A stretch of DNA of 64,000 nucleotides from Bacteroidales bacterium (GCA_035299085.1 DATGXG010000041.1:55151-119150), one strand, 5' to 3'; positions 1 to 22,092 are shown, counted from the first letter of the stretch. Made by a program: numbers and translations. Notes: generated from the letters alone by a model not told the origin.

Positions 1-1226
1 TAAGACTGCGCAAAACTTCCGGCACCAATAAAACCGATATTGAATTTCTGAATTGAAAGGGGGTTTACAGATACCGCCTGTTTTTTCACAAGAGCCTGAT
101 CAGGGTATTCGAGTACTATTCCTACAAAATATTCGCTTTTCTTTCCGAGTATGATATCGTAAGCGTCTACTGCCTGTTCAATATTGAAAACATGCGTTGT
201 AAGCGGTTTAAGGTCAACACTACCGTTTGAAATCAATTTTAAAAAGGCCTCCATATTCCGCTGTTCAGTCCATCTGACATAACCATAGGGATAATCAAGA
301 CCTTCTTCTTCATAAAAAGTGTCATAACGTCCGGGGCCATAGGAACATGACATTTTTAGTTCCAGTTCCTTTCTGTAATAATCGGGGTCACGGGGCAGTT
401 CCATTTTAACCGCACCAACAATGACAACGGCGCCTTTTTTTCGGAGTATCTGCCCTGCAAGTTCGACAGGGTCATTTGTCTGTCCTGCCGCTGTAATGAT
501 AACTGTGTCGAATCCGTTTCCATTTGTAAAGTTTTCGGCAGCGGTGATCAAATTCGGATCATTGCGTTCAATTGCAGTGGCTGCCCGGGTATCGTTTGCA
601 AGCCTGACCATTTTTGCTGAAACATCAACTCCAAAAACATTGCAGCCGTTAGCTCGCAGGATTTGACAGGTCATTTGACCAAGCAAACCCAGGCCAATCA
701 CGCATACGTTATCACCAAGTTTGGGATCTGCCTGCCTTACACCCTGAAGTGCTATGGCTCCCAGGGTTGTATAACTGGCATATTTCATTTCCACATTATC
801 CGGTATTTTGGCTACAAGATTCTGTGGTACACATACCACTTCGGCATGTGAAGCATACCCAAGTCCGGCACAGGCTACCCTGTCACCCGGTTTAAATTTT
901 CCGGTCCTGTCCATAGAGGCTAGTACAATACCGGCACTACTGTAGCCTAATGCTTTAAGTGAATCCAGCTTTGTTTTGACTTTTTCGATGGTGGCTTTGA
1001 GCCCTTCCTTTTTATAATTCTGCAATACCTGTTTTACAAGGTCAGGTCGCATTTTGGCTTTTCCCAGAAGGCTTGCCTGGGCGGTACTCACCGTAGTTTT
1101 TTCAGTACCTGCGCTTATAAGAGAATAGGAATTGGCAATAAGAACATAACCTTCACTGATGGAAGGAGCAGCTAACTCATCGACATAAAGTTCCCCTGTT
1201 TTAAAATTCTGGATTAGTTGTTTCAT
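1..1226 (-). CDS. Bi-domain oxidoreductase, 3' end cut by the window edge. An MDR/Zn-alcohol-dehydrogenase-like module is followed by the start of a Gfo/Idh/MocA-type Rossmann module.
   Basis: Absent from the ORF track because it runs off the window. My own minus-strand translation from ATG 1226-1224 gives MKQLIQNFKTGELYVDELAAPS... It has an internal dinucleotide-binding motif VIGLGLLGQ and a second Rossmann start, KFNIGFIGAGSFAQS, at bases ~60-3. The frame stays open to base 3. The + strand ORFs 421..666 and 663..851 are shadows of this gene. Confidence 0.7.
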   Translation of the reverse strand, partial: MKQLIQNFKTGELYVDELAAPSISEGYVLIANSYSLISAGTEKTTVSTAQASLLGKAKMRPDLVKQVLQNYKKEGLKATIEKVKTKLDSLKALGYSSAGIVLASMDRTGKFKPGDRVACAGLGYASHAEVVCVPQNLVAKIPDNVEMKYASYTTLGAIALQGVRQADPKLGDNVCVIGLGLLGQMTCQILRANGCNVFGVDVSAKMVRLANDTRAATAIERNDPNLITAAENFTNGNGFDTVIITAAGQTNDPVELAGQILRKKGAVVIVGAVKMELPRDPDYYRKELELKMSCSYGPGRYDTFYEEEGLDYPYGYVRWTEQRNMEAFLKLISNGSVDLKPLTTHVFNIEQAVDAYDIILGKKSEYFVGIVLEYPDQALVKKQAVSVNPLSIQKFNIGFIGAGSFAQS

Positions 1227-1236
1227 TTATATTCGT

Positions 1237-2001
1237 CTAAAGATTTTTATAATTTACTAAGGTATGATCTTTCATTAAGTTCAAAAACAAAGGATTCTGG
1301 AGAAAAAGTGTGTCAAAGTCATTACTGTCATTTGGATGACTTTCGATTTCAACACATTTATAATCAGTTTGAAGCATTAGTGATAATCGTTCAAGATTCT
1401 GTTCTACAGCATTTTGAGGATACCGAAACAATTCGAAGTAGCCATCAGGTGTTTTCAGATTGTTTCTTGTAATAAACTGGTGCAGGTTACGGTAGCCTTT
1501 TTTAATAAAATCGGGTTTGCGGGGGGCAATTATACGTTGTGAACGGATGGAAGGGATTCCGTATTTCTTGGCAAGTTTGATTACCTGGAATAATATGGGA
1601 AAATACAGGTGTAAATGGTGATGGTGGTCTAAATGGGTTACTTTTATGCCGTTATCAAAAACCTTTTGGAGCTGCAGTTCATATTCCTTAAAGATATCGT
1701 CGACTGAAAAACTGAAAGTTCTGAGTTTGCGGATAGTTTCATCCCTTTCAAAGAACTGATTTTTAGATGCATCAATAGTCGAATTCTGATAATTGTTCAT
1801 ATTGAAAGGGCCGTCAAGGCAAAGATGAACCCCAACGCCCAGTCCGGGAGAAGATTTTATGATCTTTACTGCATCATCAAATGATTCAGAGTTAGCTATT
1901 ACAGTGGCACTCAAAATAATACCTTTGTCATGTAGGACTTTTACACATTGATTCAATTCATTTGTCAGTCCAAAGTCATCCGCATTAATAATGATCCGCA
2001 T
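1237..2001 (-). CDS. ChbG/YdjC-family carbohydrate deacetylase
   Basis: The N-terminus MRIIINADDFGLT is the hallmark of the YdjC/ChbG family. VGVHL and an HLDHHHHLH His cluster are also present. Only 10 nt separate it from the upstream oxidoreductase gene. Confidence 0.75.
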   Translation of the reverse strand: MRIIINADDFGLTNELNQCVKVLHDKGIILSATVIANSESFDDAVKIIKSSPGLGVGVHLCLDGPFNMNNYQNSTIDASKNQFFERDETIRKLRTFSFSVDDIFKEYELQLQKVFDNGIKVTHLDHHHHLHLYFPILFQVIKLAKKYGIPSIRSQRIIAPRKPDFIKKGYRNLHQFITRNNLKTPDGYFELFRYPQNAVEQNLERLSLMLQTDYKCVEIESHPNDSNDFDTLFLQNPLFLNLMKDHTLVNYKNL

Positions 2002-2013
2002 TGAAAGTGTAAG

Positions 2014-3093
2014 TTATTTGCAATATGTAATAAATTGATCCATACGTAAATCCCATGTGTTATTCTTTGCAAAATTCACCCTGGATTGTATAAGTTCGCT
2101 GTTATTCTCATTAAATGCCTTAACAATTAAGTCCGGAAAATGATGCATTTCATCCACAGGATAAATTAATTTTTCGGGCAAATCGATCGTTGATAAGCTC
2201 TTAAGTTTTGTGGTTACAACGGGTTTCCCCACAGCAAGGTAAATAAACATTTTGTTCGGAATTCCACCTTCATTTACTTTTTTGTTTGCATACGGCGCGA
2301 TGGCCACATCAAAATCATTCACAGCAGCAAGCAGTTCCTTATCGGTAAGAGTACCTTTACGAATCACCCTGTCCTTTTTTTCTATATTCTCATAGAATTG
2401 AGGATCAACAGGGCCAATAAAAGTGATTATACAGTCAACATTCTGCAATATATTATTAACCAAATCAGATGATAGATTATAATTCGAAATGAACCCTACC
2501 AGTCCAATGTTCAACGGGTGTTCCGTTTCATTTTTAGCAGCAGGAATCACATCGAATTCATGGATATCAGGACCACCAAGCAGAATTTCATAACTCGAAG
2601 GATTCCATTTCAGCAGGTTTGCAGTAATCATTGGTGATGTTCCAATGCAGAACACCGATGACTTCATAATTTTCCGTTCACAGTACTCATGGTACCTGTA
2701 AATCGGCCAGACATTTATCTTACGGCTGATCGATGAAAAATTATCATTACAGTAATAATATACAGTTTTAAAATACCTGAAAATTTTGTGTGCGGTAAAG
2801 TCAAAGTTAATCACCTTTCTGTCGTTGTATCTTTTCCTCAGCCATCTGAAAAGCCATGCCTGGTAAATTTCATTTAACAACGGAATCCGGTAACGGATGC
2901 GCACATCAATGGGGAAAAATGGCTGGATTACAGTCAGGTTTGAATGAACCGGATACTTCTTGATTTTCGGAAATCCTTTTTTATTGGCGGAAACAAAAAC
3001 CACATCATATTTTTTCGCAAGAGCCCCTGCTACCTGGTGTCTTGCACGGGGAGGCTCATCCCATGCTGTAAGGGTATTTATTAAAAACTTCAT
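2014..3093 (-). CDS. Glycosyltransferase (GT-B fold, GT4/TuaH-like), tentative
   Basis: 359 aa in an EPS-locus context. The C-terminal half shows a GT-B donor-binding-like pattern (GTLTDKELLAAVNDFDVAIAPY...EGGIPNKMFIYLAVGKPVV). The family assignment is from memory, not from an HMM. Confidence 0.55.
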   Translation of the reverse strand: MKFLINTLTAWDEPPRARHQVAGALAKKYDVVFVSANKKGFPKIKKYPVHSNLTVIQPFFPIDVRIRYRIPLLNEIYQAWLFRWLRKRYNDRKVINFDFTAHKIFRYFKTVYYYCNDNFSSISRKINVWPIYRYHEYCERKIMKSSVFCIGTSPMITANLLKWNPSSYEILLGGPDIHEFDVIPAAKNETEHPLNIGLVGFISNYNLSSDLVNNILQNVDCIITFIGPVDPQFYENIEKKDRVIRKGTLTDKELLAAVNDFDVAIAPYANKKVNEGGIPNKMFIYLAVGKPVVTTKLKSLSTIDLPEKLIYPVDEMHHFPDLIVKAFNENNSELIQSRVNFAKNNTWDLRMDQFITYCK

Positions 3094-3233
3094 ATCTTAA
3101 ACTGTCAGATCGCGAAGTTCAAAAAAGAATCTAAGAATAGCATCGCATCAAATTTTCTACGGAAAAAAGTTTTTTAGGATATATAATTCACTAACAATTT
3201 TCAACATAATGAGTTTTTGCCTCCGTTCAAATG

Positions 3234-3249
3234 GGTGATATATATCACC
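3234..3249. promoter_or_regulatory. Perfect 16-bp palindrome GGTGATATATATCACC in the divergent promoter region
   Basis: Read directly from the sequence; it is its own reverse complement. It lies between the divergent glycosyltransferase (-) and beta-helix gene (+), 10 nt before the distal TTTCGTCAAT copy. Confidence 0.4.
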
Positions 3250-3284
3250 AATCATAACTTTCGTCAATTATTCTCGTATATTCA

Positions 3285-3314
3285 TCAAAAAAATTAACCC
3301 ATTCGTCAATATTT
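3285..3314 (+). promoter_or_regulatory. Conserved bipartite motif TCAAAA-N13-CGTCAATATTT (copy P1) upstream of beta-helix gene 1. A second CGTCAAT core lies at 3262-3268.
   Basis: The same blocks with the same 13-nt spacer occur at 6670-6699 in front of the paralog. The spacer and flanking sequence have diverged. No TAnnTTTG box is visible here. Confidence 0.5.
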
Positions 3315-3337
3315 TTTCACGTTTCAGCTAATTGAGT

Positions 3338-6300
3338 ATGCGTAAGATTGGAAAGTTAAGTCAAAAACAGGGATTGGTCTGTCTCATTTTAGTTGTATTA
3401 GCAAGTATTCAAACGGTAAAAGCAAGTTATGACAGCACTTATGTGCTTGCCGTGAAGCAAAAGTATGCCATTCCGGAAGTTGTAGAAAACAATGATTATG
3501 TGGGTATCTGGCTCAAGACGTATACTTGGATGTCAAAGGGTACAATTACATTTTCAATTGAGAGGAATTTCCGTTCTGCATTTTCAATTAACAGCACTTC
3601 GGGTTTGATCACCATATCGGATGCATCGGGGATCAATGGAAAAATTGTTCAGCAGGATACCGTGATCAATCTGATTATCAGAACCACTGATAATATAAAC
3701 GGATATGAACTGGATACATGTGAAATAAGGGTAAAGGAAAAGTCTTCCTGCATTTTCTATAATTTCCAGGGCTCACAGGGTAACGGAACCAGAGCAAACC
3801 CTTATAACTCCCTAAGTTCAGTCGCATTCAAACCGGGTTATGGATATTTTCTTAAAAGGGGTACCGTATCTGATGGAGAGACAACCATAATTTCAGGTAT
3901 TATTTCAGATGCCCGCCATCCCATGCTCATTGCTGCGTACGGAAAAGGTAAAAAACCGGTCTTTGACGGGACCAATGCTCCTTTACAAAGCCAGTGTTTT
4001 TATTTTGGGGATGAAGATAATCAGGAAGCGGGGCGGTGTGAATACCTGTATGTATATGATGTGGATATAAAGGATTATACTTGGTGTGCCATGGAAGTCT
4101 ACAGAACCAGCAGGAATCTTGGTTTTTACAACGTTTACCTGCACAACAATGATATAAACGGGCGCCAGTCCATGTTTGTGATAAGTACTTCGAGTTATGC
4201 TGATACAGCCAGTTATGATCCTTTTGAGCTTATAAATTGCGAATTTGACACGGTAGGCAGAGTTACCAATTTTGAACCTTCTCATATAAAAATCGGATCC
4301 GGGCCTATTTATTTAACGAATTGCCGGTTCGGAAGCTCTGCCAAGTCAGGAGTTAGGTTTGCAGATGGCAACCATGGCGGTATAATGAAGCACTGCCTTG
4401 TTGAAACCGGGCAGTTTACCAATCAGATATCATATTATGCTGTGCAGGTAAGAATGGATAATACCACAATTGAGGATTGCCGGTTTTTGGGGGGAAGCTC
4501 TTCAGTTTATATCACAGCTCCGGGTGATGCAAATTGTTATGAAATGCAGCCTCACCATGTAACTGTAAAAAACTGTTACATGGAAAATGCAATAGTGGCC
4601 GCTATATGGGTAGCCCCGCCCAACGATCAGTACCAGGCATCAACAGGACATGTTTACAAAGACAACCTTATTAAAAATACAGGTATTGGCATCCACGACA
4701 GGAATGGTAACGGAACCTTAATCCAGCGCAATAAGATCTTCAATACCAATCTGGGAATTTATGTTAGTGATGAATGGTCAGGTAAAGGAAAAAACATAAA
4801 AATATCAAACAACCTTATTTATAATTGTTCCGACAAAGCTATTTTTATCGAAAACGGTGATAAATATACTGTTGTGAGAAACACAATAAATGGTAAGCTG
4901 GATGTTAAAGGAGCCACCAACACAACCGTGATAAACAATATGTATGTTTCATTAACCGGCGGCAATACAGTAGACAGGAACCTGGAGATCGGTTCTGTTC
5001 CTGCAGATGATTATTTTGTCAATTTTAAAGGAAACGATTATTGTTTGAAAACAACAGCTTCCAAAGCTATCAACCAGGGTGTAAGTGACGGAATAACCCA
5101 GGATTATGCCTTAAATCCTGTTGTCGGAAATCCTGATATCGGAGCATGGGAATATGTAGCGTATACAGTTGAAAATCCACCCGACCCGGATACTCCATCG
5201 GTTGAGCCGCCTGTTGTTGTAAATCCTCCTTCACCCCCTCCTATTGTTACAGACGGTAACATTTATATTGATCCTGAAAACACTGGAGATGCGCTTGAAA
5301 ACGGGACCAAAGACCATCCGTACAATTCATGGGCAGATGTAAAATGGGCTGAAGGCAAATCCTACCTGCAGAAGAAAGGGACTACAGCCAATGAAGACAA
5401 AGTAATTATAGGGGCGAGTAATGTAAAAATCGGATCATATGGTACTGGAGCCTTGCCACGTATAGTAAGCAATACGACCACTTACCTGATCAGCTCATTC
5501 GAAAAGAAGAACATCAGTATCACGGGACTTCAGCTTGAAGCCCCGAACTCGGTAAGCACTGTATACTTTCTCGGAAGCACAAGTGATAATATAACAATTG
5601 AAATGTGTTTGCTGAAAGGAAGTGAAAACAGCATACGGATAGTTGAAGGAAAGCATTTTACAATCCGATACAATACAATCAGCAGTGAAGGTGAAGGGAT
5701 CAGCTCATCAGCAGAATCTAATGATCTGTATTACAATATTTTCAAAGAAAATGACGTGGCCATTCTGATACCCAGTGTTCTCTCCAAAGCCCGCATTTAT
5801 AATAATGTATTTGCCGGCAACAATGAATCAGTCAGTTCCACATACGCTGATCTCACACTTTGTAATAACATATTCTATTTCTTTGAAAACGGTCAGAAAG
5901 CCATTACGCAACTTTCAGCCAAAATTGCATCCGATAATAACATCTATTTCCCTCAGCAGGCTGGCTTTGCTTCCATTGCAGGTAAATCATACAGTACACT
6001 CGACCAATTGCAGAAGGATCTGAAAGTTGATTTGAATTCATTTGAAAAAGATCCGCTGTTTGTTGACATTCTTGCCGACGATTTCAACCTGGCGAATAAT
6101 TCTCCGGCCATCGACAACGGAATCAATATTAATATCACAAAAGACTTCATCGGAACCAGTGTACCACATTATTCCGCTCCTGACATAGGTATTTTGGAAT
6201 TTACCGGTTTGATTGCAAATCAGGATAAACCCGGCCTGAAAGTCTATCCCAATCCAAGTTCGGGCATATTGAATATTGATTTCCAGGAAGTTATCGAAAA

Positions 6301-6511
6301 TGAAACTTATAATCCCCAGGCAAGCGGAATTTCCTCTCCAGTCCTTAAACTGGCGGATTTATCAGGAAGAGTATTAATCACACGATCAGTAAGCAATTCT
6401 GATAACAGCGTTGAATCGATTGATTTATCATCAATGGCAAACGGAATTTACCTTGTAATCTTTGAACGCCTGGGCAAAAAACTTGTCGAAAAAGTTATCC
6501 TTTCCAGGTAA
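3338..6511 (+). CDS. T9SS-secreted protein with a cadherin-like N-domain and two right-handed parallel beta-helix modules joined by a Pro-rich linker
   Basis: - Signal peptide: LVCLILVVLASIQTVKA.
- PbH1-like repeats rich in N/G/I (e.g. NNLIYNCSDKAIFIENG).
- Linker: ENPPDPDTPSVEPPVVVNPPSPPP.
- Second module opens IYIDPENTGDALENGTKDHPYNSW.
- C-terminus KVYPNPSSGILNIDF...ANGIYLVIFE is typical of a Por secretion tail.
- I chose the ATG at 3338; the track's TTG at 3332 is less likely. Confidence 0.8.
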   Translation: MRKIGKLSQKQGLVCLILVVLASIQTVKASYDSTYVLAVKQKYAIPEVVENNDYVGIWLKTYTWMSKGTITFSIERNFRSAFSINSTSGLITISDASGINGKIVQQDTVINLIIRTTDNINGYELDTCEIRVKEKSSCIFYNFQGSQGNGTRANPYNSLSSVAFKPGYGYFLKRGTVSDGETTIISGIISDARHPMLIAAYGKGKKPVFDGTNAPLQSQCFYFGDEDNQEAGRCEYLYVYDVDIKDYTWCAMEVYRTSRNLGFYNVYLHNNDINGRQSMFVISTSSYADTASYDPFELINCEFDTVGRVTNFEPSHIKIGSGPIYLTNCRFGSSAKSGVRFADGNHGGIMKHCLVETGQFTNQISYYAVQVRMDNTTIEDCRFLGGSSSVYITAPGDANCYEMQPHHVTVKNCYMENAIVAAIWVAPPNDQYQASTGHVYKDNLIKNTGIGIHDRNGNGTLIQRNKIFNTNLGIYVSDEWSGKGKNIKISNNLIYNCSDKAIFIENGDKYTVVRNTINGKLDVKGATNTTVINNMYVSLTGGNTVDRNLEIGSVPADDYFVNFKGNDYCLKTTASKAINQGVSDGITQDYALNPVVGNPDIGAWEYVAYTVENPPDPDTPSVEPPVVVNPPSPPPIVTDGNIYIDPENTGDALENGTKDHPYNSWADVKWAEGKSYLQKKGTTANEDKVIIGASNVKIGSYGTGALPRIVSNTTTYLISSFEKKNISITGLQLEAPNSVSTVYFLGSTSDNITIEMCLLKGSENSIRIVEGKHFTIRYNTISSEGEGISSSAESNDLYYNIFKENDVAILIPSVLSKARIYNNVFAGNNESVSSTYADLTLCNNIFYFFENGQKAITQLSAKIASDNNIYFPQQAGFASIAGKSYSTLDQLQKDLKVDLNSFEKDPLFVDILADDFNLANNSPAIDNGININITKDFIGTSVPHYSAPDIGILEFTGLIANQDKPGLKVYPNPSSGILNIDFQEVIENETYNPQASGISSPVLKLADLSGRVLITRSVSNSDNSVESIDLSSMANGIYLVIFERLGKKLVEKVILSR

Positions 6512-6642
6512 GATGAGGAATATCACTTCTGCGTTATGAACAATTTCCGCTCTACACAACCAACTGATTTATTTACATTTCAGGTATAAGCCTGTTGATA
6601 ACCTGCTGCTAGAATTTAGGTCGGTAGCTAATTAAATTTTGC

Positions 6643-6708
6643 CATTCGTCAAATTAATCCATATATTGGTCAAAATTAATTAGTCTTTCGTCAATATTTA
6701 TTGACGAG
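6643..6708 (+). promoter_or_regulatory. Copy P2 of the motif set: CATTCGTCAAA (6643-6653), TCAAAA-N13-CGTCAATATTT (6670-6699), and the 20-bp inverted repeat TCGTCAAT-ATTT-ATTGACGA (6688-6707)
   Basis: Read directly. The two CGTCAA cores are ~41 bp apart, compared with ~42 bp in P1. The proximal core ends ~30 nt before ATG 6730. Confidence 0.5.
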
Positions 6709-6729
6709 TTAACCTAAAAACTTACTAGC

Positions 6730-9700
6730 ATGCCAAGCGTATTCCACAGAGCAAAACAAATGCTGTTATTTATCGGATTACTTAGTTTCTCCACTTTTCA
6801 ACTCATTAAAGCCGACTATCATGAACATTATGTAATGGCTGTAAAGCAAAAATTCGCAATTCCTGAGAATGTGCAAAACGGCGATTATGTTGGCTCATGG
6901 TTGAAAACTCTGACCTGGAAATCTTCCGGGGTATCTTTCAGAATTGAAAATAATTTCAAAAACGTCTTTGCCATTAATTCGTCAACCGGTCTGATTACCA
7001 TTGCCAATGCATCAGGAATTAACGGAAAGATTGTCAGGCAGGATACTTTGATCAATCTTCTGATTCGCACATCCGACGCCAGCGGAAGCGAAGTTGACAC
7101 TGCAATGATCTATGTAAAAGAAAATGCTTTCTGCAAATTCATTGATTATTCTTATCGGGGAACGGAAACAGGTAAACGCGACAAACCTTATAACGACCTC
7201 GATGACATTGCCCTGACACCCGGCTATGGGTATTTTCTCAAAAGAAAGAATATTATTAAGGATGAATATACTCCCATCACAGGACATAAAGCCACTCAGT
7301 CACATCCAACACTTATTGCAGCGTACGGGATTGGTAACCGCCCTGCGTTTACCGATGGTTCCAATATGTGTTTTTATATAGGTGATGCTACAGGCGGATC
7401 GGGTGATCCTGATGCCACTGCAACACAGTACGTTTATTTCTTCGATCTGTATATAAGAAATTATAATTCTGCCGCCATTTACAGCAGGAGAAAGAGCAAC
7501 AACATCGGGTTTTATAACCTGATCATCAATAACTGTGATAAAACGGATGTGGAGAGTACCATGGTGCTGAATACCAGTTCCTATTCGGATTACACCGCAA
7601 ACTATTCGTTTGAGGTGCTGAACTGCCGCTTTGATACAACAAGTATTAATTGCTCGAGCGGATGCGAGAAGAGTTTCATTAAAAATGGCGTCGGTCCCAC
7701 CAAAATCACGAACACTTACTTTGGATTTATAAATGGTGTAAGCCATGGATTGAGGCTTTCGGCGGGACATGGTTCAATAGTTAAACATTGTGTATTTAAC
7801 CAGGGCTCTGCAGTTACCACCACACAGAATGATGCCGGAATCCAGGTAAGACAGAATAATGTACGGATTGAGGATTGTATCTTTTATAACAAGGGAAACG
7901 GTGTGTTCATTACCAATCCCGGAACAATTGGTTCTGAGGCCCAGCCGGATTATATCACAGTTAAAAACTGCTATTTTAAAGGACAAGGTCTCAATGCAAT
8001 CCATGTGAGCCCGGTTACTTCATCCGATCTTCCGGGTGTGGGTCACGTTTTTGAAGACAATCTGATGGAAAATGTAGCAAACGGAATAGATCTGAGAGAT
8101 TGTTCAAATGCAGTTATCAGGCGCAATACAATGTCAGGCGGGAAGAATTCGGCAATTTCAACCGGGGGTTCAGAACCTTCAAACGGAACGCTGATTTATG
8201 ATAATATTATTTATGATTTTGGAGGGAAAGAGATTAACCTCACACAAGGCTCAAACATTAAGATCTTTAACAACACGGTGATTGGAAGTATTAGTGCTTC
8301 AGGATGTTCAAGCGTAAGCACCTATAATAACTACGCTTCTTCTTTTGAAGGAACCGGAACAGCTTCGCACAACCTGGATATTGACACCATCAATGTTACA
8401 ATGCATTTTGTCAATTTTACCGCACATGATCTGGATATTAAAGCCACAGCTTCAAGTTCAATTGACAAAGGACTTACAACCGACAATAAAATTGATCATT
8501 GTGGACTTAAAATCATCAACCTTCCGGATATCGGCGCCTGCGAATTAAAAACAACCGCCAACAATCCAACCACAGACATCAGCAATGATCCGACAAAAGT
8601 GCCTGCAGGAACTCCGGCTACAATGACAGGTTCAACTATTTACATTGATCCGTCCAATACGTCAGATCTCTCGGAGAACGGTTCAGTGGATCATCCATTC
8701 AGCTCCTGGTCGGATGTAAAATGGTTTTCAGGAAAAAGCTATTTGCAAAAGAGAGGTACAACCGCCTTCGAAGATAAAATTCTTATCGGTGCCGATAGCG
8801 TAACAATCGGATCATATGGTACCACTGGCGAATTACCGGTTATTTCAAGCAAAACCACAACCTACCTGGTAAGTGCATATGATAAGAAGAATATAACCAT
8901 ATCAAACTGCAATATCCAGGCTCCAGATGCAGTGAGTGCATTGTATTTTGCAGGCACCGCCTCTGACAACATTAGCATTCAGCATTGCTCCGTCACCGGT
9001 GTTTCAAACGGAATACGTGTAGCTTCAGGTCTGCATTTTAAAGCACAGTATAACATAATCAACAGCAAAGAAGAAGGTATTCAATCAACGGCATCGGAGA
9101 ATCAGATTTACTATAATGTTTTCAGAAACAATAAAATCGCTGTGAACATTCAGGGAAATGATGCAAAGGCAGATATCATCAATAACGTGTTTTATTCAAA
9201 CCACGAATCGGTTAGTACAACGTATGCTAAGCTGACTTTGTACAATAATATTTTTTATTTCACTGCCGAAGGCCAGAAAGCAATTAAAATGCTTTCACAG
9301 AACATAAGCTCGGATTATAACATCTTCTTTCCGGAACAAAACAGCATGGTGGATATATCAGGCAAATTATACAGTACAATTGACCAGATGCAAAAAGATA
9401 TGAAAATTGATGTCAATTCATTTTGTAAGGATCCTGTTTTTGCTGATGTAATAAATAACAACTTTAAGCTTGATAAGACTTCACCCGCAATTGACCGCGG
9501 TAAAATGGTGAATGTTTCAGTGGACTATTATAACAGTAAAGTTCCGTATGCTAATACAACAGATATTGGCATTCATGAATTCACAGGAAAGAAATCGATA
9601 GTTTCGGATTTGGATGAAGCTTCAAAATTGAAAGTGTACCCGAATCCATCCAAAGGAACTGTAAATGTAGATTTCGATCTTTTGAGTGAAAAATCAAGCG

Positions 9701-9897
9701 AGGAACCGGATCTTGTTCAAAAACCGGTTGTGAAACTATTGGACTTAACCGGTAAGCTGATGTTGAGGAAGGAAGTAAACGAGACAGCAGATCCTCTCGG
9801 AACGTTCGATTTAAGCGCATATGCAAACGGAATTTATATTGTAGTACTTGAATATTTCGGAAAATCAATATCGAAAAAACTGGTGTTGTACCGGTAA
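6730..9897 (+). CDS. Tandem paralog of 3338..6511: T9SS-secreted double beta-helix protein
   Basis: Collinear with the upstream gene along its whole length. Examples: YVMAVKQKFAIPENVQNGDYVGSWLKT versus YVLAVKQKYAIPEVVENNDYVGIWLKT, and IYIDPSNTSDLSENGSVDHPFSSW versus IYIDPENTGDALENGTKDHPYNSW. C-terminus: KVYPNPSKGTVNVDF...ANGIYIVVLE. Confidence 0.8.
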   Translation: MPSVFHRAKQMLLFIGLLSFSTFQLIKADYHEHYVMAVKQKFAIPENVQNGDYVGSWLKTLTWKSSGVSFRIENNFKNVFAINSSTGLITIANASGINGKIVRQDTLINLLIRTSDASGSEVDTAMIYVKENAFCKFIDYSYRGTETGKRDKPYNDLDDIALTPGYGYFLKRKNIIKDEYTPITGHKATQSHPTLIAAYGIGNRPAFTDGSNMCFYIGDATGGSGDPDATATQYVYFFDLYIRNYNSAAIYSRRKSNNIGFYNLIINNCDKTDVESTMVLNTSSYSDYTANYSFEVLNCRFDTTSINCSSGCEKSFIKNGVGPTKITNTYFGFINGVSHGLRLSAGHGSIVKHCVFNQGSAVTTTQNDAGIQVRQNNVRIEDCIFYNKGNGVFITNPGTIGSEAQPDYITVKNCYFKGQGLNAIHVSPVTSSDLPGVGHVFEDNLMENVANGIDLRDCSNAVIRRNTMSGGKNSAISTGGSEPSNGTLIYDNIIYDFGGKEINLTQGSNIKIFNNTVIGSISASGCSSVSTYNNYASSFEGTGTASHNLDIDTINVTMHFVNFTAHDLDIKATASSSIDKGLTTDNKIDHCGLKIINLPDIGACELKTTANNPTTDISNDPTKVPAGTPATMTGSTIYIDPSNTSDLSENGSVDHPFSSWSDVKWFSGKSYLQKRGTTAFEDKILIGADSVTIGSYGTTGELPVISSKTTTYLVSAYDKKNITISNCNIQAPDAVSALYFAGTASDNISIQHCSVTGVSNGIRVASGLHFKAQYNIINSKEEGIQSTASENQIYYNVFRNNKIAVNIQGNDAKADIINNVFYSNHESVSTTYAKLTLYNNIFYFTAEGQKAIKMLSQNISSDYNIFFPEQNSMVDISGKLYSTIDQMQKDMKIDVNSFCKDPVFADVINNNFKLDKTSPAIDRGKMVNVSVDYYNSKVPYANTTDIGIHEFTGKKSIVSDLDEASKLKVYPNPSKGTVNVDFDLLSEKSSEEPDLVQKPVVKLLDLTGKLMLRKEVNETADPLGTFDLSAYANGIYIVVLEYFGKSISKKLVLYR

Positions 9898-9918
9898 TTC
9901 GGATACCCTTTAAACAAA

Positions 9919-9952
9919 AGCTGTATGACTTCACCGCATACAGCTTTTTTTT
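9919..9952 (+). terminator. Rho-independent terminator after beta-helix gene 2
   Basis: The stem AGCTGTATG / CATACAGCT has a 9-nt loop and is followed by an 8-T run. Confidence 0.75.
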
Positions 9953-10019
9953 GTTTCATATTTTTTCAACCTTTTGTGACAAATTGAGTAAAATTCATTA
10001 AAATTGCCAAAGTGGACTT

Positions 10020-10027
10020 TTGACGAG
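10020..10027. promoter_or_regulatory. TTGACGAG octamer (reverse-orientation CGTCAA core) upstream of the third T9SS gene
   Basis: Identical 8-mer to 6701-6708. It sits inside the imperfect inverted repeat AAGTGGAC...GTCACTT. This is a single short match, so it is weak on its own. Confidence 0.25.
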
Positions 10028-10084
10028 AAGTCACTTTATGTTGACCGAATAATTATTTGAGGCGTTCAGAAAAGATTTTCAGTG

Positions 10085-12910
10085 ATGAAGCAAACCCTTT
10101 TTACCTTCCTTCTCAGTTTATTAGCTATTTTTCCGCTTTCGGGACAGATTACGCTGGATGATTTAAATATCATTTTTAAACACAACTTTGAGAATAATAC
10201 TGTTGGTGATTACCAGAGAAATGAGTGGTTGACGGATTTTAATAATCCCGATTGGGATAACCGACAATCTACAACCGATATTTCAGTGGACCAGAATGAC
10301 CAGGTTAATCCTTCCAAAGCCCTTCAGATTTATTATCCTCAGGGCAGTCTTGGTGCTGAAGCCGGCGGTGCCAGCTGGTATGCACCGATTCCTGCAACTG
10401 ACGAGGCCTATGTGTCCTATGATATTTTGTTTATGCCTGGTTTCCAATACCAGCTTGGCGGGAAAATGCCGAGTGTCCAGGGTGGAACCATTTATTCAGG
10501 CTCCAAACCTACCGGATATAACGGGTTTTCAGGAGGATTGATGTTTCATGCAGATGGCCTTGTATCTTTTTATCTCTATTATCCTGACGCAGTGGAAGCC
10601 ACATATGGCACTACAGCTTATTGGGGAGCCGGTTATTCAAGGGATATTTTCAGCCCGTCGCAGATGAAAGTGGAATATACAAGCGGTGTTGGTGCTTATT
10701 GTAACCCCGGTGAATGGCATAATATCACATACAGAATTGTTATGAATACCGTTAATGCCGGAGGAGGAAATTATGACGGTATCCTGGAGGCATATTTTGA
10801 CGGCAAGCTGGTAATGGAACTTTCACATGTTCTTTTCCGTCATACAACAAACATACAAATTGACTGTCTCAGGTTGTATACTTTTTTCGGCGGCAACACT
10901 GCTGATTGGGCTACGCCCATTAACGAATGGATAAAGGTTGACAACATACTGATTTATACATTCAAAGATGGCATTGATGTGCCCAGAGGTAATTCTTTAA
11001 GTCCATCTAACCGTACACTGAACTATTGGCGGAATTTTCGCATTGCATATAATGAACCACCTGCATGCCCTCAGAACATGAGAGTATATGACAGGACCAA
11101 ATCATCCATTATATTAAAATGGAATGATGTTTCTGAAACGGAGTATGGTTTCAAAATATACCGTTCTGCAAGTGCCAATGGCAATTATCAGCAAGTTGGC
11201 ACGGTCACAGCCAATGTGACGACATACACTGACAAATCCCTGGATATTAATACAACCTATTTCTATAAGATACTTGCATATAACAATGCCGGCGAATCGG
11301 TTCTTAGCGACGCATTCCAGGCTACTACCCTTGGTTTGGTAATTCCAGCGGCTCCTGACAAATTTGTAATGCAGTCGCTCAATATTACTGAATGTACGAT
11401 TGCATGGCAGGACCGGTCGGGCAATGAGACCGGGTTTGAAATCGAACGGGAAGGACCTGATCCTGCAGGAACAATCGTTAGTTTTCAAGTCGCTGCCAAT
11501 GCTACATCATATAAAGATGCAGGGCTTAAAATGAATTCAACATACAGGTACCGGCTCAGATCATACAATAGCGATGGCTATTCAGCTTATACAAGTAACA
11601 CTATTCAGATCACCACACCATATGTTGCTGTACCTTCTGCACCTTCTTTACTGAAAGGGACACAGTCGACTGACAGCAGCATTACAATATCATGGAAGGA
11701 TAATTCATCCAATGAAAGCGCATTTATTATAACCCGTTCAACAATTACGACTCCTGTTCAAAAACAGACAATACAAGTAGATGCAAACGATACTGTTTTT
11801 ACTGATAATTCTCTGTTTTCAGGAACTTCCTACCAATATACGGTTCAGGCTGTCAATATTGCCGGCACCTCTTCACAAAGCAATAAAAGAATTGTTACCA
11901 CGTTGTCCACATCGGAAATGAAGCGGGTTAAAGATGGCCTTATCGCATACTATAATTTTTCATACAGTCCCGATCTTATAATATATGATCAATCAGGTTA
12001 CGGTGAACCGCTTGACCTGCGGATACAGAATTCTTCTGCAGTGTCATGGAACAACCAAAGCAAACTGAATGTCAAGGCAAATACAATGCTAATATCCCTG
12101 TTACCTGCTAAAAAGATAATTAATGCGATTAAGTTAACAAAGGAACTTTCGATTGAATGCTGGGTAAAACCAATTGAACCCGGATGGATGGATAACGCCA
12201 GGATCATTTCACTTTCTTCGGATGACAATCACCTTGGCTTTGCAATGGACCAGAAATTAATTGATGAAAACGGTGAAAAACACCTTGATTATGGTGTCAG
12301 GGTTCAAACCGGATCCACAAACGAATCAGGATATCCTGAATTCACACCTGAATACAATTCCTCCTATATAACGCTCAATCATATCGTTTATACCCGTGAT
12401 TCAGTTGGTACAGAATGTATGTACCTCAATGGTCACAAATCGTCGGAAGGCTATCGTCCTGATGATTTCGGAAACTGGACTAATTCCTATTTTTTGAGGT
12501 TAGCCAATGAAACCGACGCGAATCATTCCTGGCAGGGTACATTTTATGAAGTTGCCCTGTATAATAAAGCGCTAAGCGGCGGTGAAATCCGGCAGAATTA
12601 TATAGCCGGGGCATCCGACAGCGTGCGGAATGTACCCATTGATTACCAGGTTAAAGTGTATCCGAATCCCATTCACAGTTCAGCCAGGGTCGAAATTAAC
12701 CCTCTTTCCGAGCAGGATATCATGGACCATACAGTAATAAGCCTATCGGATATATATGGAAGAATACTTTATACCCGGTCTGTCTTTAATCCTGGCCGGC
12801 AGAATATAGTAGATATTGACTTCAGTAACTTTGCCAACGGAATATATATTTTGCGAGTTGGTTCAGGCACCCATCTGACATCTTCAAAGCTGATCGTTCA
12901 GAAACCCTGA
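10085..12910 (+). CDS. T9SS-secreted multidomain protein: polysaccharide-lyase-like/concanavalin-like N-domain, 3 fibronectin type III domains, a LamG domain and a Por tail
   Basis: - Signal peptide: FTFLLSLLAIFPLSGQ.
- The N-domain has the motif QLGGKMPSVQGG. This resembles the GGKLPGL motif I recall from PL14-like lyase domains, so the call is tentative.
- Three ~95-aa FN3 units (e.g. PQNMRVYDRTKSSIILKWND...YFYKILAYNNAGES).
- LamG signature: WQGTFYEVALYNKALSGGEIRQNY.
- C-terminus: KVYPNPIHSSARVEI...ANGIYILRV. Confidence 0.7.
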   Translation: MKQTLFTFLLSLLAIFPLSGQITLDDLNIIFKHNFENNTVGDYQRNEWLTDFNNPDWDNRQSTTDISVDQNDQVNPSKALQIYYPQGSLGAEAGGASWYAPIPATDEAYVSYDILFMPGFQYQLGGKMPSVQGGTIYSGSKPTGYNGFSGGLMFHADGLVSFYLYYPDAVEATYGTTAYWGAGYSRDIFSPSQMKVEYTSGVGAYCNPGEWHNITYRIVMNTVNAGGGNYDGILEAYFDGKLVMELSHVLFRHTTNIQIDCLRLYTFFGGNTADWATPINEWIKVDNILIYTFKDGIDVPRGNSLSPSNRTLNYWRNFRIAYNEPPACPQNMRVYDRTKSSIILKWNDVSETEYGFKIYRSASANGNYQQVGTVTANVTTYTDKSLDINTTYFYKILAYNNAGESVLSDAFQATTLGLVIPAAPDKFVMQSLNITECTIAWQDRSGNETGFEIEREGPDPAGTIVSFQVAANATSYKDAGLKMNSTYRYRLRSYNSDGYSAYTSNTIQITTPYVAVPSAPSLLKGTQSTDSSITISWKDNSSNESAFIITRSTITTPVQKQTIQVDANDTVFTDNSLFSGTSYQYTVQAVNIAGTSSQSNKRIVTTLSTSEMKRVKDGLIAYYNFSYSPDLIIYDQSGYGEPLDLRIQNSSAVSWNNQSKLNVKANTMLISLLPAKKIINAIKLTKELSIECWVKPIEPGWMDNARIISLSSDDNHLGFAMDQKLIDENGEKHLDYGVRVQTGSTNESGYPEFTPEYNSSYITLNHIVYTRDSVGTECMYLNGHKSSEGYRPDDFGNWTNSYFLRLANETDANHSWQGTFYEVALYNKALSGGEIRQNYIAGASDSVRNVPIDYQVKVYPNPIHSSARVEINPLSEQDIMDHTVISLSDIYGRILYTRSVFNPGRQNIVDIDFSNFANGIYILRVGSGTHLTSSKLIVQKP

Positions 12911-12983
12911 AAAAAGCAACCGGATAAAAACCGGTTCCGTTGTTTAATACAATATCACTATTCCATTTCTATACCGATTTTAA

Positions 12984-14042
12984 ATGGATATGCGTAAAAA
13001 CTATTTATGGATTATATGGCTGGCTATAATTGCCTCATGTAACAATGATGTAAGGAAATCAGAGTATTATATACCCGGCACCATCTCCGCCGAAGCCCGA
13101 AAGGAATTAGCTTCATTTGCTTTTAAGGATACTATCAACGGAGGATATCCCTCGGCTGATGATACGGCATTATGGCGAAAATTCTGGCAGTACAATGAAG
13201 ATGCCTGGATGCCCTTTAACGATACGCTGAGAATGTTGTTTAAACCGCATATCATTGATACCGTTATGGGTGGTGTACCTGTTCTTGATGTCAGGCCGCA
13301 TGACTGGAAAGACAATGGAAAGATCCTGATTTATATCCATGGCGGGGCATACACGCTATTCAGCGCATATACCATGATGGGAGGCGTTTTACCCATTGCT
13401 GATTTAACCGGCTTAAGAGTGATTTCAATAAATTACACCAACCCGCCCCGCTTAAAATACAATCAAATCCTGGAGCAGGTAATTTCAGTGGTTTCAGCCA
13501 TACTGAAAATGGGTTATGAAATGCCGGACATTGGCATTTATGGTGATTCGGCTGGTGGAGGCCTTTCAGCCGGCTCAGTGCTCAAGATGCGCGATGAAGG
13601 AATGGGCATGCCTGCAGTTGTTGTGTTGATCTCACCATGGTCTGATATAACCAATAACGGGGATACCTATCGCACCCTGATGGGGGAGGATCCCATCATT
13701 GAATACAATAACTCATTAAGACCATCATCGCTGGCCTATGCACCACCTGAAATGCATAAGAATCCATATGTTTCACCTGTTTACGGAGACTACACCAGGG
13801 GTTTTCCTCCTACACTCATACAGGGGGGAACTAAGGAGATTTTCCTGAGTAATTTCGTAAGACAATACCAGGCCATAGATCAGGCCGGAATCCCCGTAAA
13901 GCTTGACCTTTATGAAGGTATGTGGCACGTGTTCCAGGAAATAAATTATGATCTTCCTGAATCAAAGATTGCCCATGCAAAGTTCAGGGATTGGGTATAC
14001 CGGTACATGCAAATTGACAGCACGAAGGTCACCAGGAAGTGA
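12984..14042 (+). CDS. Alpha/beta-hydrolase-fold esterase/lipase (family IV/HSL-like), predicted lipoprotein
   Basis: Lipobox LAIIASC, oxyanion motif IYIHGGAY, nucleophile elbow GDSAGGG, and a distal WHVF His region. Confidence 0.75.
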   Translation: MDMRKNYLWIIWLAIIASCNNDVRKSEYYIPGTISAEARKELASFAFKDTINGGYPSADDTALWRKFWQYNEDAWMPFNDTLRMLFKPHIIDTVMGGVPVLDVRPHDWKDNGKILIYIHGGAYTLFSAYTMMGGVLPIADLTGLRVISINYTNPPRLKYNQILEQVISVVSAILKMGYEMPDIGIYGDSAGGGLSAGSVLKMRDEGMGMPAVVVLISPWSDITNNGDTYRTLMGEDPIIEYNNSLRPSSLAYAPPEMHKNPYVSPVYGDYTRGFPPTLIQGGTKEIFLSNFVRQYQAIDQAGIPVKLDLYEGMWHVFQEINYDLPESKIAHAKFRDWVYRYMQIDSTKVTRK

Positions 14043-14198
14043 AATTAACATTCGGTCTTCGCTCTTGCCAGCTCTGAGATATCGTTCCTGATTTTCATCC
14101 GTTGATTAACTTCTGACTTACATCCCACGATTCGGTCACTTTGTCAAATAGTCCGCAAATAGTGGGCTTCAAAGTGGTCTTTGAAATTAATAAGTCAT

Positions 14199-14206
14199 TA
14201 CTTTTG
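14199..14206 (+). promoter_or_regulatory. Candidate Bacteroidota sigma-A -7 box TActTTTG for the wbaP-wza-wzc-type operon
   Basis: Exact match to TAnnTTTG, 29 nt upstream of ATG 14235. Confidence 0.4.
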
Positions 14207-14234
14207 GCTTATAAATCAAACCTCTATCCGGGAA

Positions 14235-15647
14235 ATGACTAAGATTGTTAAGCATAAAAAAGATTTTAATTCGCTCCTTACAATTATTGATCTCATTGTA
14301 ACTGTATTTTCTTATTTCCTTGCCTATTTTCTTATTAATATAATAAACACTGATTATTTCAGGTTTGACAGGGATTATGTTATCATGCTGATTCTCATAA
14401 TACCTACATGGGCAATTTTGTTATACACTTCTAACCTCACAACCATCCCAAGAACACGGTCATACGTTTCCATTTTTATGACCTTCATAAACTTTAACTT
14501 CGCCGGATTTGCGCTTTTATTTTTATACAAACACCTTTTCGGCCTCCACAATTTCAGCCACTTTGTAATCATTTCATTCAGCATTATCAATCTTCTTTCG
14601 CTATACTTTGTCAGAATTCTAACCTATAAAGTATTTAAATATTACAGGGCCAACGGCCATAATATCAGCAATATCGTAATTTACGGAGATGAAAGGTCCG
14701 AGCAGTTCATTGACTCCCTTTTACAACATCCTGAGTGGGGTTTCCGGATCCTGATGATTGTCACCAATTCTGCCTGGTTAAAAAAGAAATTCGGATCGAC
14801 GATCCGCATCTATCCTGATAAAATCAACCTCAAAAATATTCTTGACATTGATATTATTGATGAGATTATTTGCTGCAAGTGCAACATTGAGGATGAAAAA
14901 ATCAGGGCGCTTGTAGAAATGTGTGAGGAAATCGGTGTTACCATCCGTATTCAACCTAATCGTCCGCTGAAAGGTATGGCAGATGCTCATATTACGCACC
15001 TGGAGCACATTCCTTTCATTACAATTAAGAATACACCTCAAAATTCAGCCGCTGTTGCCAGGAAATCTTTCTTCGAATTCTGGGTATCTTTCAGCATCCT
15101 GTTCATTCTTTCTCCGATCATGTTTCTTATCGCCTTAATGATTAAAATAACGTCAAAAGGCCCGGTAATCTTTAAACAGGAACGTGTAGGGTTAAGAGGC
15201 CGAAAGTTTTATATGTACAAATTCAGGACCATGGTTCACAATGCCGAACAGCTCAAAGCTCAGCTGGAAGCACTGAATGAAAGTGATGGTCCGACATTCA
15301 AAATTAAAAGGGATCCACGTATCACCTTTGTCGGAAGAATTCTCAGAAAAACAGGTCTCGACGAATTGCCGCAATTGTTTAACGTTGTTAAAGGCGAGAT
15401 GGCCCTTATAGGACCCCGTCCTCCCCTGCCCTCCGAAGTTGAAAAATATGAACGCTGGCATTTGCGCCGTTTATCGGTTAAACCCGGAATCACCTGCACC
15501 TGGCAGATAATTCCCAACCGCAATGAAGTTTTATTCGATAACTGGATGAAACTCGATATCCAGTACATAGACACATGGTCTATCAAAAATGACTTCCAAC
15601 TTTTTATCAGAACCATTAAGACGGTTCTTTACGGTACGGGATATTAA
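14235..15647 (+). CDS. Polyprenyl-phosphate glycosylphosphotransferase (WbaP/CpsE-type initiating sugar transferase)
   Basis: N-terminal transmembrane helices, then a C-terminal bacterial sugar-transferase core: KGPVIFKQERVGLRGRKFYMYKFRTM...DELPQLFNVVKGEMALIGPRPPLP. I chose the ATG at 14235 over the track's TTG at 14181. Confidence 0.85.
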   Translation: MTKIVKHKKDFNSLLTIIDLIVTVFSYFLAYFLINIINTDYFRFDRDYVIMLILIIPTWAILLYTSNLTTIPRTRSYVSIFMTFINFNFAGFALLFLYKHLFGLHNFSHFVIISFSIINLLSLYFVRILTYKVFKYYRANGHNISNIVIYGDERSEQFIDSLLQHPEWGFRILMIVTNSAWLKKKFGSTIRIYPDKINLKNILDIDIIDEIICCKCNIEDEKIRALVEMCEEIGVTIRIQPNRPLKGMADAHITHLEHIPFITIKNTPQNSAAVARKSFFEFWVSFSILFILSPIMFLIALMIKITSKGPVIFKQERVGLRGRKFYMYKFRTMVHNAEQLKAQLEALNESDGPTFKIKRDPRITFVGRILRKTGLDELPQLFNVVKGEMALIGPRPPLPSEVEKYERWHLRRLSVKPGITCTWQIIPNRNEVLFDNWMKLDIQYIDTWSIKNDFQLFIRTIKTVLYGTGY

Positions 15648-15742
15648 CCGTGTATCTTTTACCTCCTTGCTATCGTAAAAAAATTCAAATCCAAACGCCA
15701 ATTTTTTATAAATTAGCTTTTTAAGAAATCTATACAGGAATC

Positions 15743-16519
15743 ATGAAAAACAACAGAAATTATTCTTTGATGTTCCTGTCAACAGGTATTTTATTGCTTG
15801 TTACGTCCTGCGTTGACGTGAGCAAATTGAAATACGTTGACGATGCAAGTACCGGTTCAGTAAAAAATGATTACAAGAATGATCGTACGGAAAAAACGAT
15901 TCAGCCCTATGATTACCTGTATATCAAAATATATAGCCTGGATGAAAAAACAAACAATATTTTTAACGAACGGAGTTATAGCATAGACACAGAACTGTTA
16001 AGTTATGCCGTTGATGCAAATGGCGATATTACCGTTCCGTTTATCGGAACCATTAATGTTAAAGGCCTGACAATTAACGAGGCCAGGGACAAAATCACCA
16101 AGTCTCTTTCGGCTTACCTGAATAACATATCCGTTATGGTAAGGTTTGTAAGTAACAAAGTAACGGTTCTTGGTGAAGTTAATTCACCGGGGCAACATCC
16201 GTTTTTTGATGAGAAAGTCACCGTTTTCCAGGCACTCGGATTTGCTGGTGGCACATCCGGCTTTGGTGATTTATCAAATGTAACTCTTGTAAGAGAAAAA
16301 GATAATGTGATCAAATATTATACCCTTGACCTTACAAAGAAAGGAATTGCCGCATCAGAGTATTATTATCTTCTTCCAAATGATGTACTGATTATAAATC
16401 CTATAAAAGCCAAATACAGGAGCTTGCAGGATTATGCACTGAGCACAACAGGAACTGTCCTGACTTCAATAAGTGCAATCTTGTCCATTATTCTTATAAC
16501 AAATCAGCTTAGTAAGTGA
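15743..16519 (+). CDS. Polysaccharide export outer-membrane protein (Wza/Poly_export + SLBB family)
   Basis: Lipobox LLVTSC. YLYIKIY...GDITVPFIGTINVKGLTINEA...VTVLGEVNSPG is the classic Poly_export pattern. Confidence 0.8.
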   Translation: MKNNRNYSLMFLSTGILLLVTSCVDVSKLKYVDDASTGSVKNDYKNDRTEKTIQPYDYLYIKIYSLDEKTNNIFNERSYSIDTELLSYAVDANGDITVPFIGTINVKGLTINEARDKITKSLSAYLNNISVMVRFVSNKVTVLGEVNSPGQHPFFDEKVTVFQALGFAGGTSGFGDLSNVTLVREKDNVIKYYTLDLTKKGIAASEYYYLLPNDVLIINPIKAKYRSLQDYALSTTGTVLTSISAILSIILITNQLSK

Positions 16520-18987: not shown

Positions 18988-18991
18988 AAAT

Positions 18992-19019
18992 AAAAGGCGC
19001 TTTAACCGGCGCCTTTTTT
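18992..19019. terminator. Bidirectional terminator between convergent wzc-type and phosphatase genes
   Basis: AAAAGGCGC-tttaaccg-GCGCCTTTT, flanked by an A-run and a T-run. Confidence 0.75.
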
Positions 19020-22089: not shown

Positions 22090-22092
22090 TTC

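Follow-up and report, generated by a model that had tools for sequence, protein, structure and literature searches.

Helically phased direct repeats overlapping the promoters of secreted polysaccharide-cleaving enzymes: a putative operator array in uncultured Bacteroidales

LytTR-type response regulators recognize 9-bp direct repeats separated by a spacer of 12 (11-13) bp (PMC6193735). One of them, AlgR, binds the sites CCGTTCGTC and CCGTTCATC, acts as a repressor of rhlI through a site at -28 and has one inverted site at algD (PMC4064291). In Zobellia galactanivorans, the GntR-family protein AusR represses alginate-lyase genes from one to three operators placed over the -7 box; its binding is cooperative and more copies lead to stronger repression (PMC7641319). 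Promoters of the extracytoplasmic function (ECF) type combine an AAC -35 element carrying a T-tract with a CGTA -10 element, 14-17 bp apart (PMC5758882). Here we describe a set of short direct repeats upstream of bh1 and bh2, the first and second beta-helix genes of a 64-kb stretch of DNA from an uncultured Bacteroidales (DATGXG010000041.1; hereafter the window), and upstream of the PL14 lyase gene that follows them. We favor, tentatively and from sequence comparison, the view that these repeats are a helically phased array of sites for one putative regulator, which overlaps the core promoter and probably represses it. The three genes are set in an exopolysaccharide (EPS; capsule or slime) locus, together with glycosyltransferases, a WbaP-type initiating transferase, Wza and Wzc. 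To our knowledge, almost nothing is known about the regulation of type IX secretion system (T9SS) cargo outside Porphyromonas and Flavobacterium.

The bh1 and bh2 promoters each contain three direct repeats, TTCGTCAA, TT(C/G)(A/G)TCAA and TTCGTCAA, which start at 3260, 3281 and 3302 (bh1) and at 6645, 6666 and 6687 (bh2), with a start-to-start period of exactly 21 bp (Table 1). Each unit consists of an 8-10 bp core, TTCGTCAA(a), and an AT-rich spacer, the sequence of which is not conserved and the length of which, counted after the 8-mer, is exactly 13 bp in all arrays. Since 21 bp corresponds to two helical turns, successive units would lie on the same face of the DNA. Arrays have two to four units, three being usual and four found in some. 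The window has 78 copies of the 8-mer with one mismatch (both strands counted), and the bh1 and bh2 promoters are the only places where two of them lie on the same strand at a distance of 21 or 42 bp; the triple-repeat pattern has two matches in the window, compared to 0.00 expected by chance.

A first-pass annotation of the window had described these promoters as a bipartite motif, TCAAAA-N13-CGTCAATATTT, with a separate distal core further upstream. The elements it listed are all present, each within one base of the position given: TCAAAA is found at 3285-3290 and 6670-6675, and CGTCAATATTT at 3304-3314 and 6689-6699. The distal core corresponds to TTCGTCAA at 3260-3267 and 6645-6652; the start given as 6643 in the second copy should be 6644, and the distal-proximal spacing is exactly 42 bp in both copies rather than 41-42. 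The bipartite motif is also rare, with two window matches even when up to 2 mismatches are allowed (0.04 expected from shuffles, 0/100 of which reach 2). It is the layout that needs to be replaced: TCAAAA is the 3' part of the middle repeat plus its flank, and the whole is really a three-unit array with a 21-bp period. The sixth base of the hexamer is not conserved, since the closely related locus L001 has TCAAAT instead.

Two other types of repeated DNA were considered and rejected. An invertible promoter was ruled out because a scan for inverted repeats flanking the promoter found none. Plasmid or phage iterons are repeated as whole 17-22 bp units at a replication origin, whereas the spacers are not conserved here and the arrays stand at orthologous chromosomal promoters. 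The bh2 promoter contains a 17-nt inverted repeat, 82% complementary (6628-6644 and 6667-6683), that brackets the distal repeat and includes the middle one.

The bh1 and bh2 proteins are 44% identical, a distance at which neutral DNA should be randomized. When the two promoters were compared in register and without gaps, identity was 24% upstream of the module and 64% inside it; the surrounding DNA has thus diverged while the module was retained, as the first-pass annotation had perceived. We gathered syntenic loci (L-numbers) from ~9 further lineages, in Bacteroidales or Prolixibacteraceae metagenome-assembled genomes. L001/L002 encode a 90% ortholog, further beta-helix orthologs are present in L004/L007, L006, L013/L015, L012 and L014, and L139, L140 and L141 were found via their PL14 gene; protein identity of the orthologs outside L001/L002 is 35-53%. 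The ortholog promoters are 58-75% identical to that of bh1 within the module and 24-36% outside. Footprinting in relatives, which had been put forward as a check, finds the array kept at equivalent promoters in ~8 other lineages.

To score the repeats, a weight matrix was built from the six window sites alone and then scanned over held-out promoters, with 2000 shuffles of each. The best triple at spacing 21 was found upstream of the beta-helix genes in L004, L006, L015, L014, L012 and L139, and the same held for both PL14 genes of L004 and for the cadherin-PL14 genes in L140 and L141. The observed score of these forward triples was reached by 0/2000 shuffles in every case. When spacings of 17-25 were tested, the peak was at 21, except in L014, where the score was slightly higher at 25. 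Most lineages have TTCGTCAA without mismatch as the proximal repeat; L006 and L013 have TCTGTCAA, without CGTC, at this position.

These comparisons bear directly on the reading we consider the least probable of all, in which the repeats have no specific function and are a duplication remnant, phased AT-rich bendable DNA or sites for a nucleoid protein. It is true that bh1 and bh2 are paralogous and that the spacers are AT-rich, with A-tracts. However, the flanks are at random identity (24%) and a CG-containing word is kept, the word and its 21-bp phase are conserved where the spacer sequence is not, and the array recurs in ~9 lineages and before a different family, PL14. We would say that conservation across lineages already contradicts this reading.

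The array is also specific. The window and related loci (~0.4 Mb) contain 156 open reading frames (ORFs) of 200 aa or more, and the only ones preceded by strong arrays are beta-helix and PL14 genes and a divergent glycosyltransferase gene that has the same intergenic DNA upstream. No array was found at the T9SS cargo genes at 26419-30663 (minus strand) and 59413-63492 (plus strand) of the window, at the cargo gene of L015 or at the UBA12447 beta-helix paralogs. Because these other type IX cargo genes are without it, the array tracks enzymes of the polysaccharide locus rather than the secretion signal, and the link to T9SS cargo at large that had been proposed finds no support, in favor of a narrower regulon of beta-helix and PL14 enzymes. 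The accompanying idea, that the secreted enzymes are controlled separately from the rest of the locus, agrees well with what looks to be a selected, gene-specific cis-regulatory module.

Further afield, a literature search for the repeat word matched only primers. A pattern scan of metagenomes gave, among the matches listed, mostly coding 7-residue repeats, microsatellites and iteron-like arrays; only L133, L134 and L135 among them look related. L133 (Ga0123354_10064320) and L134 (JGI24705J35276_12222681) are unrelated contigs with (A)CGTTCGTCAA arrays of 3-4 units and a 21-bp period, 100-200 nt upstream of secreted-protein genes, one of which encodes a polysaccharide deacetylase with Big_2 domains. 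One L133 array is followed by CGTATACTTTTGTCAC, close to the CGTATACTTGTCAC of L014.

At some PL14 genes the array is inverted. The octamer TTGACGAG, already noted by the first-pass annotation upstream of the window PL14 gene, belongs to the same system, as one unit of an inverted pair spaced by 21 bp; the score of this pair was reached by 1/2000 shuffles (both strands counted). The PL14 gene of L001 has the same inverted pair, 21 bp apart, with a perfect TTGACGAA (0/2000 shuffles), and that of L139 (53% identical) has an inverted triple, TTGATGAA, TTGATTAA and TTGATAAA (0/2000 shuffles). The L004 PL14 arrays are in the forward orientation. Inverted arrays end 15-36 nt before the ATG, inside the 15-50 nt range seen for the last unit of forward arrays. 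Orientation independence at a comparable distance from the ATG is expected of a DNA-binding regulator and not of sigma-factor elements, and the most likely interpretation is that the units are docking sites for a regulator rather than a sigma-factor promoter.

The occurrence of the word in both orientations would also suit one of the proposals of the first-pass annotation, that the 20-bp palindrome TCGTCAAT-ATTT-ATTGACGA at bh2 is bound as an operator by a symmetric, dimeric transcription factor. The 9-nt arms are indeed perfect in this copy (TCGTCAATA and TATTGACGA, at 6688-6696 and 6699-6707). At bh1, however, the position of the inverted arm is occupied by TTCACGTT, with 5/8 matches, the palindrome is found in none of the orthologous promoters, and the feature that is conserved is the direct-repeat array. 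We consider a palindromic operator very improbable; the second arm makes more sense as an inverted fourth unit, the TTGACGAG of 6701-6708.

Forward arrays keep a constant register to a conserved (CG)TATA(T/C)T element: a first unit is placed within the promoter spacer, a second directly adjoins the TATA element, where it would cover the likely transcription start, and a third is found ~20 bp downstream, with an added unit ~40 bp downstream or ~45 bp upstream in some lineages. The distance from the TATA element to the ATG is near-constant at 63-75 nt (86 nt in PL14b of L004, which has an 18-nt insertion), while either one or two repeats follow the element. In bh1 and its eight positional equivalents (the first secreted-enzyme gene of each locus, including cadherin-PL14), the element is part of an invariant AAC(TTT)-N16-CGTATA, also written AACTTT-N13-CGTATA. 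This sequence has the AAC -35, the CGT(A) -10, the spacer range and the ortholog conservation of an ECF promoter, and resembles the sigma-W type, with its tGAAACnTTTt ... CGTA features (PMC5758882). Among 141 loci, AAC-N16-CGTATA was found at these promoters only, plus one unrelated match (L022). The TATA of CGTATA also opens a TAnnTT -7-like box, TATATTCA (3277-3284).

The ECF-like element is missing from the promoters of bh2 (GCC...CATATA) and of the L004 PL14 genes, yet the repeats are kept there in the same register to the TATA, in which respect these promoters differ from the ECF pattern. What they retain in that position is TATA(T/A)(T/A), compatible with the first bases of TAnnTTTG, the Bacteroidota -7 box, which is expected to have a TTG 17-21 nt further upstream. 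The bh2 box, TATATTGG, is a 5/6 match to the -7 consensus (PMC7366714) and L004 PL14b has TTG-N18-TAAATTTC; bh1 has only 5/6 -7 boxes, without a TTG. An E. coli-type promoter scan flagged a sole site, TTGCCA-N17-TATATT, at bh2. We infer an ECF-sigma-like core promoter for bh1 and its positional orthologs, and a housekeeping core promoter of the Bacteroidota type for bh2 and the PL14 genes of L004; both core types retain the array. No ECF sigma or anti-sigma gene was found in the window. Sigma-54 was set aside, as no TGGCAC-N5-TTGC was noticed when the promoters were read by eye (no pattern scan was made). The bh1 AAC element is immediately preceded, at 3234-3249, by a perfect 16-bp palindrome, GGTGATATATATCACC; similar sequences stand at the same place in L140 (ATGATTTATATCACCAC) and L141 (GGTGATATAAATCATCAC), and not in the other lineages. 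It may be the site of a second regulator.

The position of this ECF-like element is relevant to another proposal of the first-pass annotation, an alternative-sigma promoter with TCAAAA as its -35, CGTCAAT as its -10 and the distal CGTCAA as incidental. ECF -10 elements do contain CGT, with CGTC a known variant (PMC5758882), and ~22 ECF sigma factors are encoded per Bacteroidota genome (PMC7826278); the block also lies close enough to the ATG for a plausible 15-30 nt leader. However, the proposed -35 (TCAAAA or TCAAAT) has no AAC and is the tail of a third 8-mer copy that varies already in L001, while the CGTC is replaced by CTGTC in L006 and L013. Three or four identical phased words, and the inverted PL14 arrays, are left unexplained. 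The far better ECF signature is AACTTT-N13-CGTATA, 29 bp upstream of the proposed -10 and invariant in eight lineages. A sigma-factor promoter at TCAAAA/CGTCAAT therefore seems improbable to us.

In the reading we favor, a single sequence-specific regulator would bind the units cooperatively along one face of the helix. The TATA element would act as the -10/-7 element, so that the units would occupy the promoter spacer, the start region and a position around +20. Since the sites would then extend over both the core promoter and the first part of the transcript, the most likely effect of the regulator is repression by occlusion, which a signal, perhaps a phosphorylation event or a product of EPS breakdown, would lift. 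Beta-helix and PL14 enzymes, which are secreted and cleave polysaccharide, would form a small regulon apart from the surrounding biosynthesis and export genes. We infer the direction of control and the transcription start, as well as the family of the putative regulator considered below.

A serious alternative, if an unlikely one, is that the same array activates transcription from an unusually promoter-proximal position. A LytTR-like or AraC/hybrid two-component regulator would recruit RNA polymerase, with transcription starting after the proximal repeat and the leader very short or absent. Direct repeats with a 21-bp period are typical of activating LytTR regulators, hybrid two-component regulators of Bacteroides have predicted sites with a mean separation of 21 bp (PMC3878776), and a proximal repeat that is perfect in most lineages would also be in keeping with activation. 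The ACGTTCGTCAA arrays of L133/L134, 100-200 nt upstream of their genes, are at a normal activator position, and the proximal repeat of L004 PL14b is followed 18 nt later by a perfect TATATTTG, which would put the repeat at -33. However, the final repeat of the arrays ends 15-50 nt before the ATG, and only 15-17 nt before it in L012, L014 and L140, so that with an activator site upstream of -33, transcription would begin within the coding sequence. Activation thus needs very short leaders, and leaders of <10 nt represent just 3.7% of those in Bacteroides (PMC7366714). No conserved -7 box follows the proximal repeat, the conserved (CG)TATA lies in the middle of the array rather than after it, and inverted arrays are found at a similar distance from the ATG.

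The promoter positions favored here also imply that one or two units would be transcribed, which raises the possibility that the repeats act in the transcript, with UUCGUCAA units in the 5' leader binding an RNA-binding protein or folding to control translation or stability. The bh2 palindrome could indeed fold as a hairpin 22 nt before the ATG, but this hairpin is specific to that copy. The distal unit would be untranscribed and yet is equally conserved, inverted arrays would appear in RNA as the complement of the word, and no RNA family matches the region (an Rfam scan of 1-16000 gave no relevant match). We give this explanation even less credit than a palindromic operator.

Several observations weigh against a repressing array as we picture it. 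The overlap with the core promoter rests on imperfect motifs, the housekeeping -7 box being at most a 5/6 match in the window promoters. Part of the conservation of the distal repeat in bh1 orthologs could stem from the promoter, since the repeat overlaps AACTTT. The PL14 genes of L006 and L141 have no convincing array, which would mean that membership of PL14 in the regulon differs between lineages. Classical LytTR sites lie ~10 bp upstream of the -35, and the array sites lie elsewhere. Lastly, no LytTR, AraC or other candidate regulator gene was found in the window, in the 10 kb beyond its start, which contain biosynthesis genes only, or within 10 kb of annotated orthologous loci; the LytTR domain search covered window ORFs of at least 150 aa and the annotated flanks of L001, L004, L014, L015 and L136-L141. 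The regulators that the window does encode (a receiver+GerE protein, an NtrC-type protein with its kinase and a PAS protein) are not tied to the array. The first of these, a NarL-type regulator, lies directly downstream of a gene for a 1413-aa protein with PPDK_N as its sole recognized domain (21433-26334, minus strand), an unusual pairing at the edge of the locus.

The site architecture and the TTCGTC word most resemble the sites of LytTR-type response regulators such as AlgR, a family to which AgrA and HdrR/BrsR also belong, although we would take this as a resemblance only. An 8-10 bp direct-repeat core with a 13-bp spacer and a 21-bp period falls within both the repeat and the spacer dimensions of LytTR sites. 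The general LytTR word is [TA][AC][CA]GTTN[AG][TG], which the array word does not fit. LytTR repeats come in twos and lie ~4-11 bp upstream of the -35, whereas the three to four units of the array flank the TATA element on both sides; the cognate LytTR gene is often adjacent and autoregulated, whereas no LytTR gene was found near any locus examined. The likeness to AlgR is closer: its 9-mers CCGTTCGTC and CCGTTCATC have TTCGTC/TTCATC in common with the array word, and CCATTCGTC, the sequence of the units at 3299-3307 and 6642-6650, agrees at 8/9 positions. AlgR also controls an exopolysaccharide, alginate, through three sites, one of them inverted, and represses from -28 (PMC4064291). A more elaborate scheme, speculative and rather unlikely as a whole, would be a two-layer switch on matrix-cleaving enzymes, in which the ECF-sigma promoter AACTTT-N13-CGTATA is combined with a phased array for an AlgR-like regulator recognizing TTCGTC, convergent with the AlgU/AlgR control of alginate in Pseudomonas. 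Such a switch would time T9SS secretion of EPS depolymerases for matrix remodelling or dispersal, and the array would be portable, carried with a horizontally exchanged bh2 cassette.

The AraC-type hybrid two-component regulators of Bacteroides belong to the same phylum, serve polysaccharide-degrading enzymes and use direct repeats with a centre distance of ~21 bp (PMC3878776). Their sites are 12-16 bp long, paired, separated by 5-9 bp and adjoin regulator and SusC/D genes, whereas the array conserves only 8-10 bp per unit and the window has no hybrid two-component or SusC/D gene. No word in the Bacteroides regulator site lists (PMC3878776) resembles that of the array, and neither do the PorX sites of Porphyromonas. 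The resemblance of AusR lies in operator copies placed over the -7 box of genes for secreted polysaccharide lyases, again in a member of the Bacteroidota. Its operators are, however, palindromic (TKGTN2-3ACMA), adjacent and 3 bp apart, compared to direct repeats of another word every 21 bp. The 50-bp array and the 25-bp ECF-like core provide a concrete DNA target for the control of enzymes that would cut the cell's own exopolysaccharide in uncultured Bacteroidales, and the array can be used as a search key for the regulon and its regulator in complete genomes of the group.

Table 1. Repeat units, candidate promoter elements and the genes they precede (window coordinates)
Feature	Position	Strand	Remarks
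bh1 AACTTT, ECF-type -35-like (AAC + T-tract)	3256..3261	+	alignment in register; consensus PMC5758882
bh1 distal repeat TTCGTCAA	3260..3267	+	within spacer of ECF-like element
bh1 CGTATA, ECF-type -10-like (CGTA)	3275..3280	+	16 nt after AAC
bh1 middle repeat TTCATCAA	3281..3288	+	one mismatch; adjoins CGTATA
bh1 proximal repeat TTCGTCAA	3302..3309	+	ends 28 nt upstream of ATG
bh2 housekeeping-like promoter candidate	6638..6669	+	TTTG (6638-6641), N20, TATATTGG (6662-6669); distal repeat in spacer
bh2 distal repeat TTCGTCAA	6645..6652	+	
bh2 middle repeat TTGGTCAA	6666..6673	+	one mismatch
bh2 proximal repeat TTCGTCAA	6687..6694	+	ends 35 nt upstream of ATG
bh2 extra inverted copy TTGACGAG	6701..6708	-	reverse complement of CTCGTCAA; palindrome partner of proximal repeat
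PL14 inverted unit TTGACGAG	10020..10027	-	reverse complement of CTCGTCAA
PL14 inverted unit TTGACCGA	10041..10048	-	reverse complement of TCGGTCAA; 21 bp from other unit; ends 36 nt before ATG
bh1	3338..6511	+	right-handed beta-helix/NosD-like protein, T9SS C-terminal sorting domain
bh2	6730..9897	+	right-handed beta-helix (NosD-like)/T9SS paralog of bh1
PL14 lyase	10085..12910	+	fn3, LamG and T9SS sorting domains

The window is matched by a Logan contig at 99.99% identity. The bh2 gene and its own promoter form a cassette-sized insertion or deletion (~6534-9903) that is missing from the 90% relative L001 (13172-13200), where the bh1 stop codon is followed directly by a terminator and PL14; the junctions are at a short TTC(T/G)G repeat. 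With only 44% identity to bh1, bh2 is not a recent tandem copy. A strong hairpin followed by a T-run (AAACAAAAGCTGTATG...CATACAGCTTTTTTTT) lies 3' of bh2 at 9912-9952, and a terminator scan found no terminator-like site in the bh1-bh2 interval. In L004, the tandem PL14 genes have ~300 bp of duplicated upstream DNA (15390-15996 and 18828-19268), including the conserved block GTTGCATTGTCCATTTTCAG.ATGAGCAATAA; an additional TTCGTCAA/TTAGTCAA pair with 21-bp spacing is present at 15640, far 5' of the first of these genes.

A Logan contig from SRR10450295 (L003, 6001-8574) is phage-like, with a tape-measure gene, an endolysin-like GH108 gene and an HNH gene, and one of its products matches the N-terminal ~600 residues of bh1 at 51% identity. 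This resemblance suggests that the beta-helix proteins are polysaccharide depolymerases of a type common to phage tail fibres; a comparison of the bh protein with solved structures and phage families gave no matches.

The TAnnTTTG box that the first-pass annotation had reported at the WbaP-type gene, TACTTTTG at 14199-14206, does fit this consensus and lies 28 nt upstream of ATG 14235, which is a likelier start (470 aa, as in orthologs) than TTG 14181. The WbaP-type gene (14181-15647) is 98% identical between the window and L001, compared to 90-93% for the neighbouring secreted enzymes and glycosyltransferase; the secreted or serotype-specific part of the locus thus appears to diverge faster.

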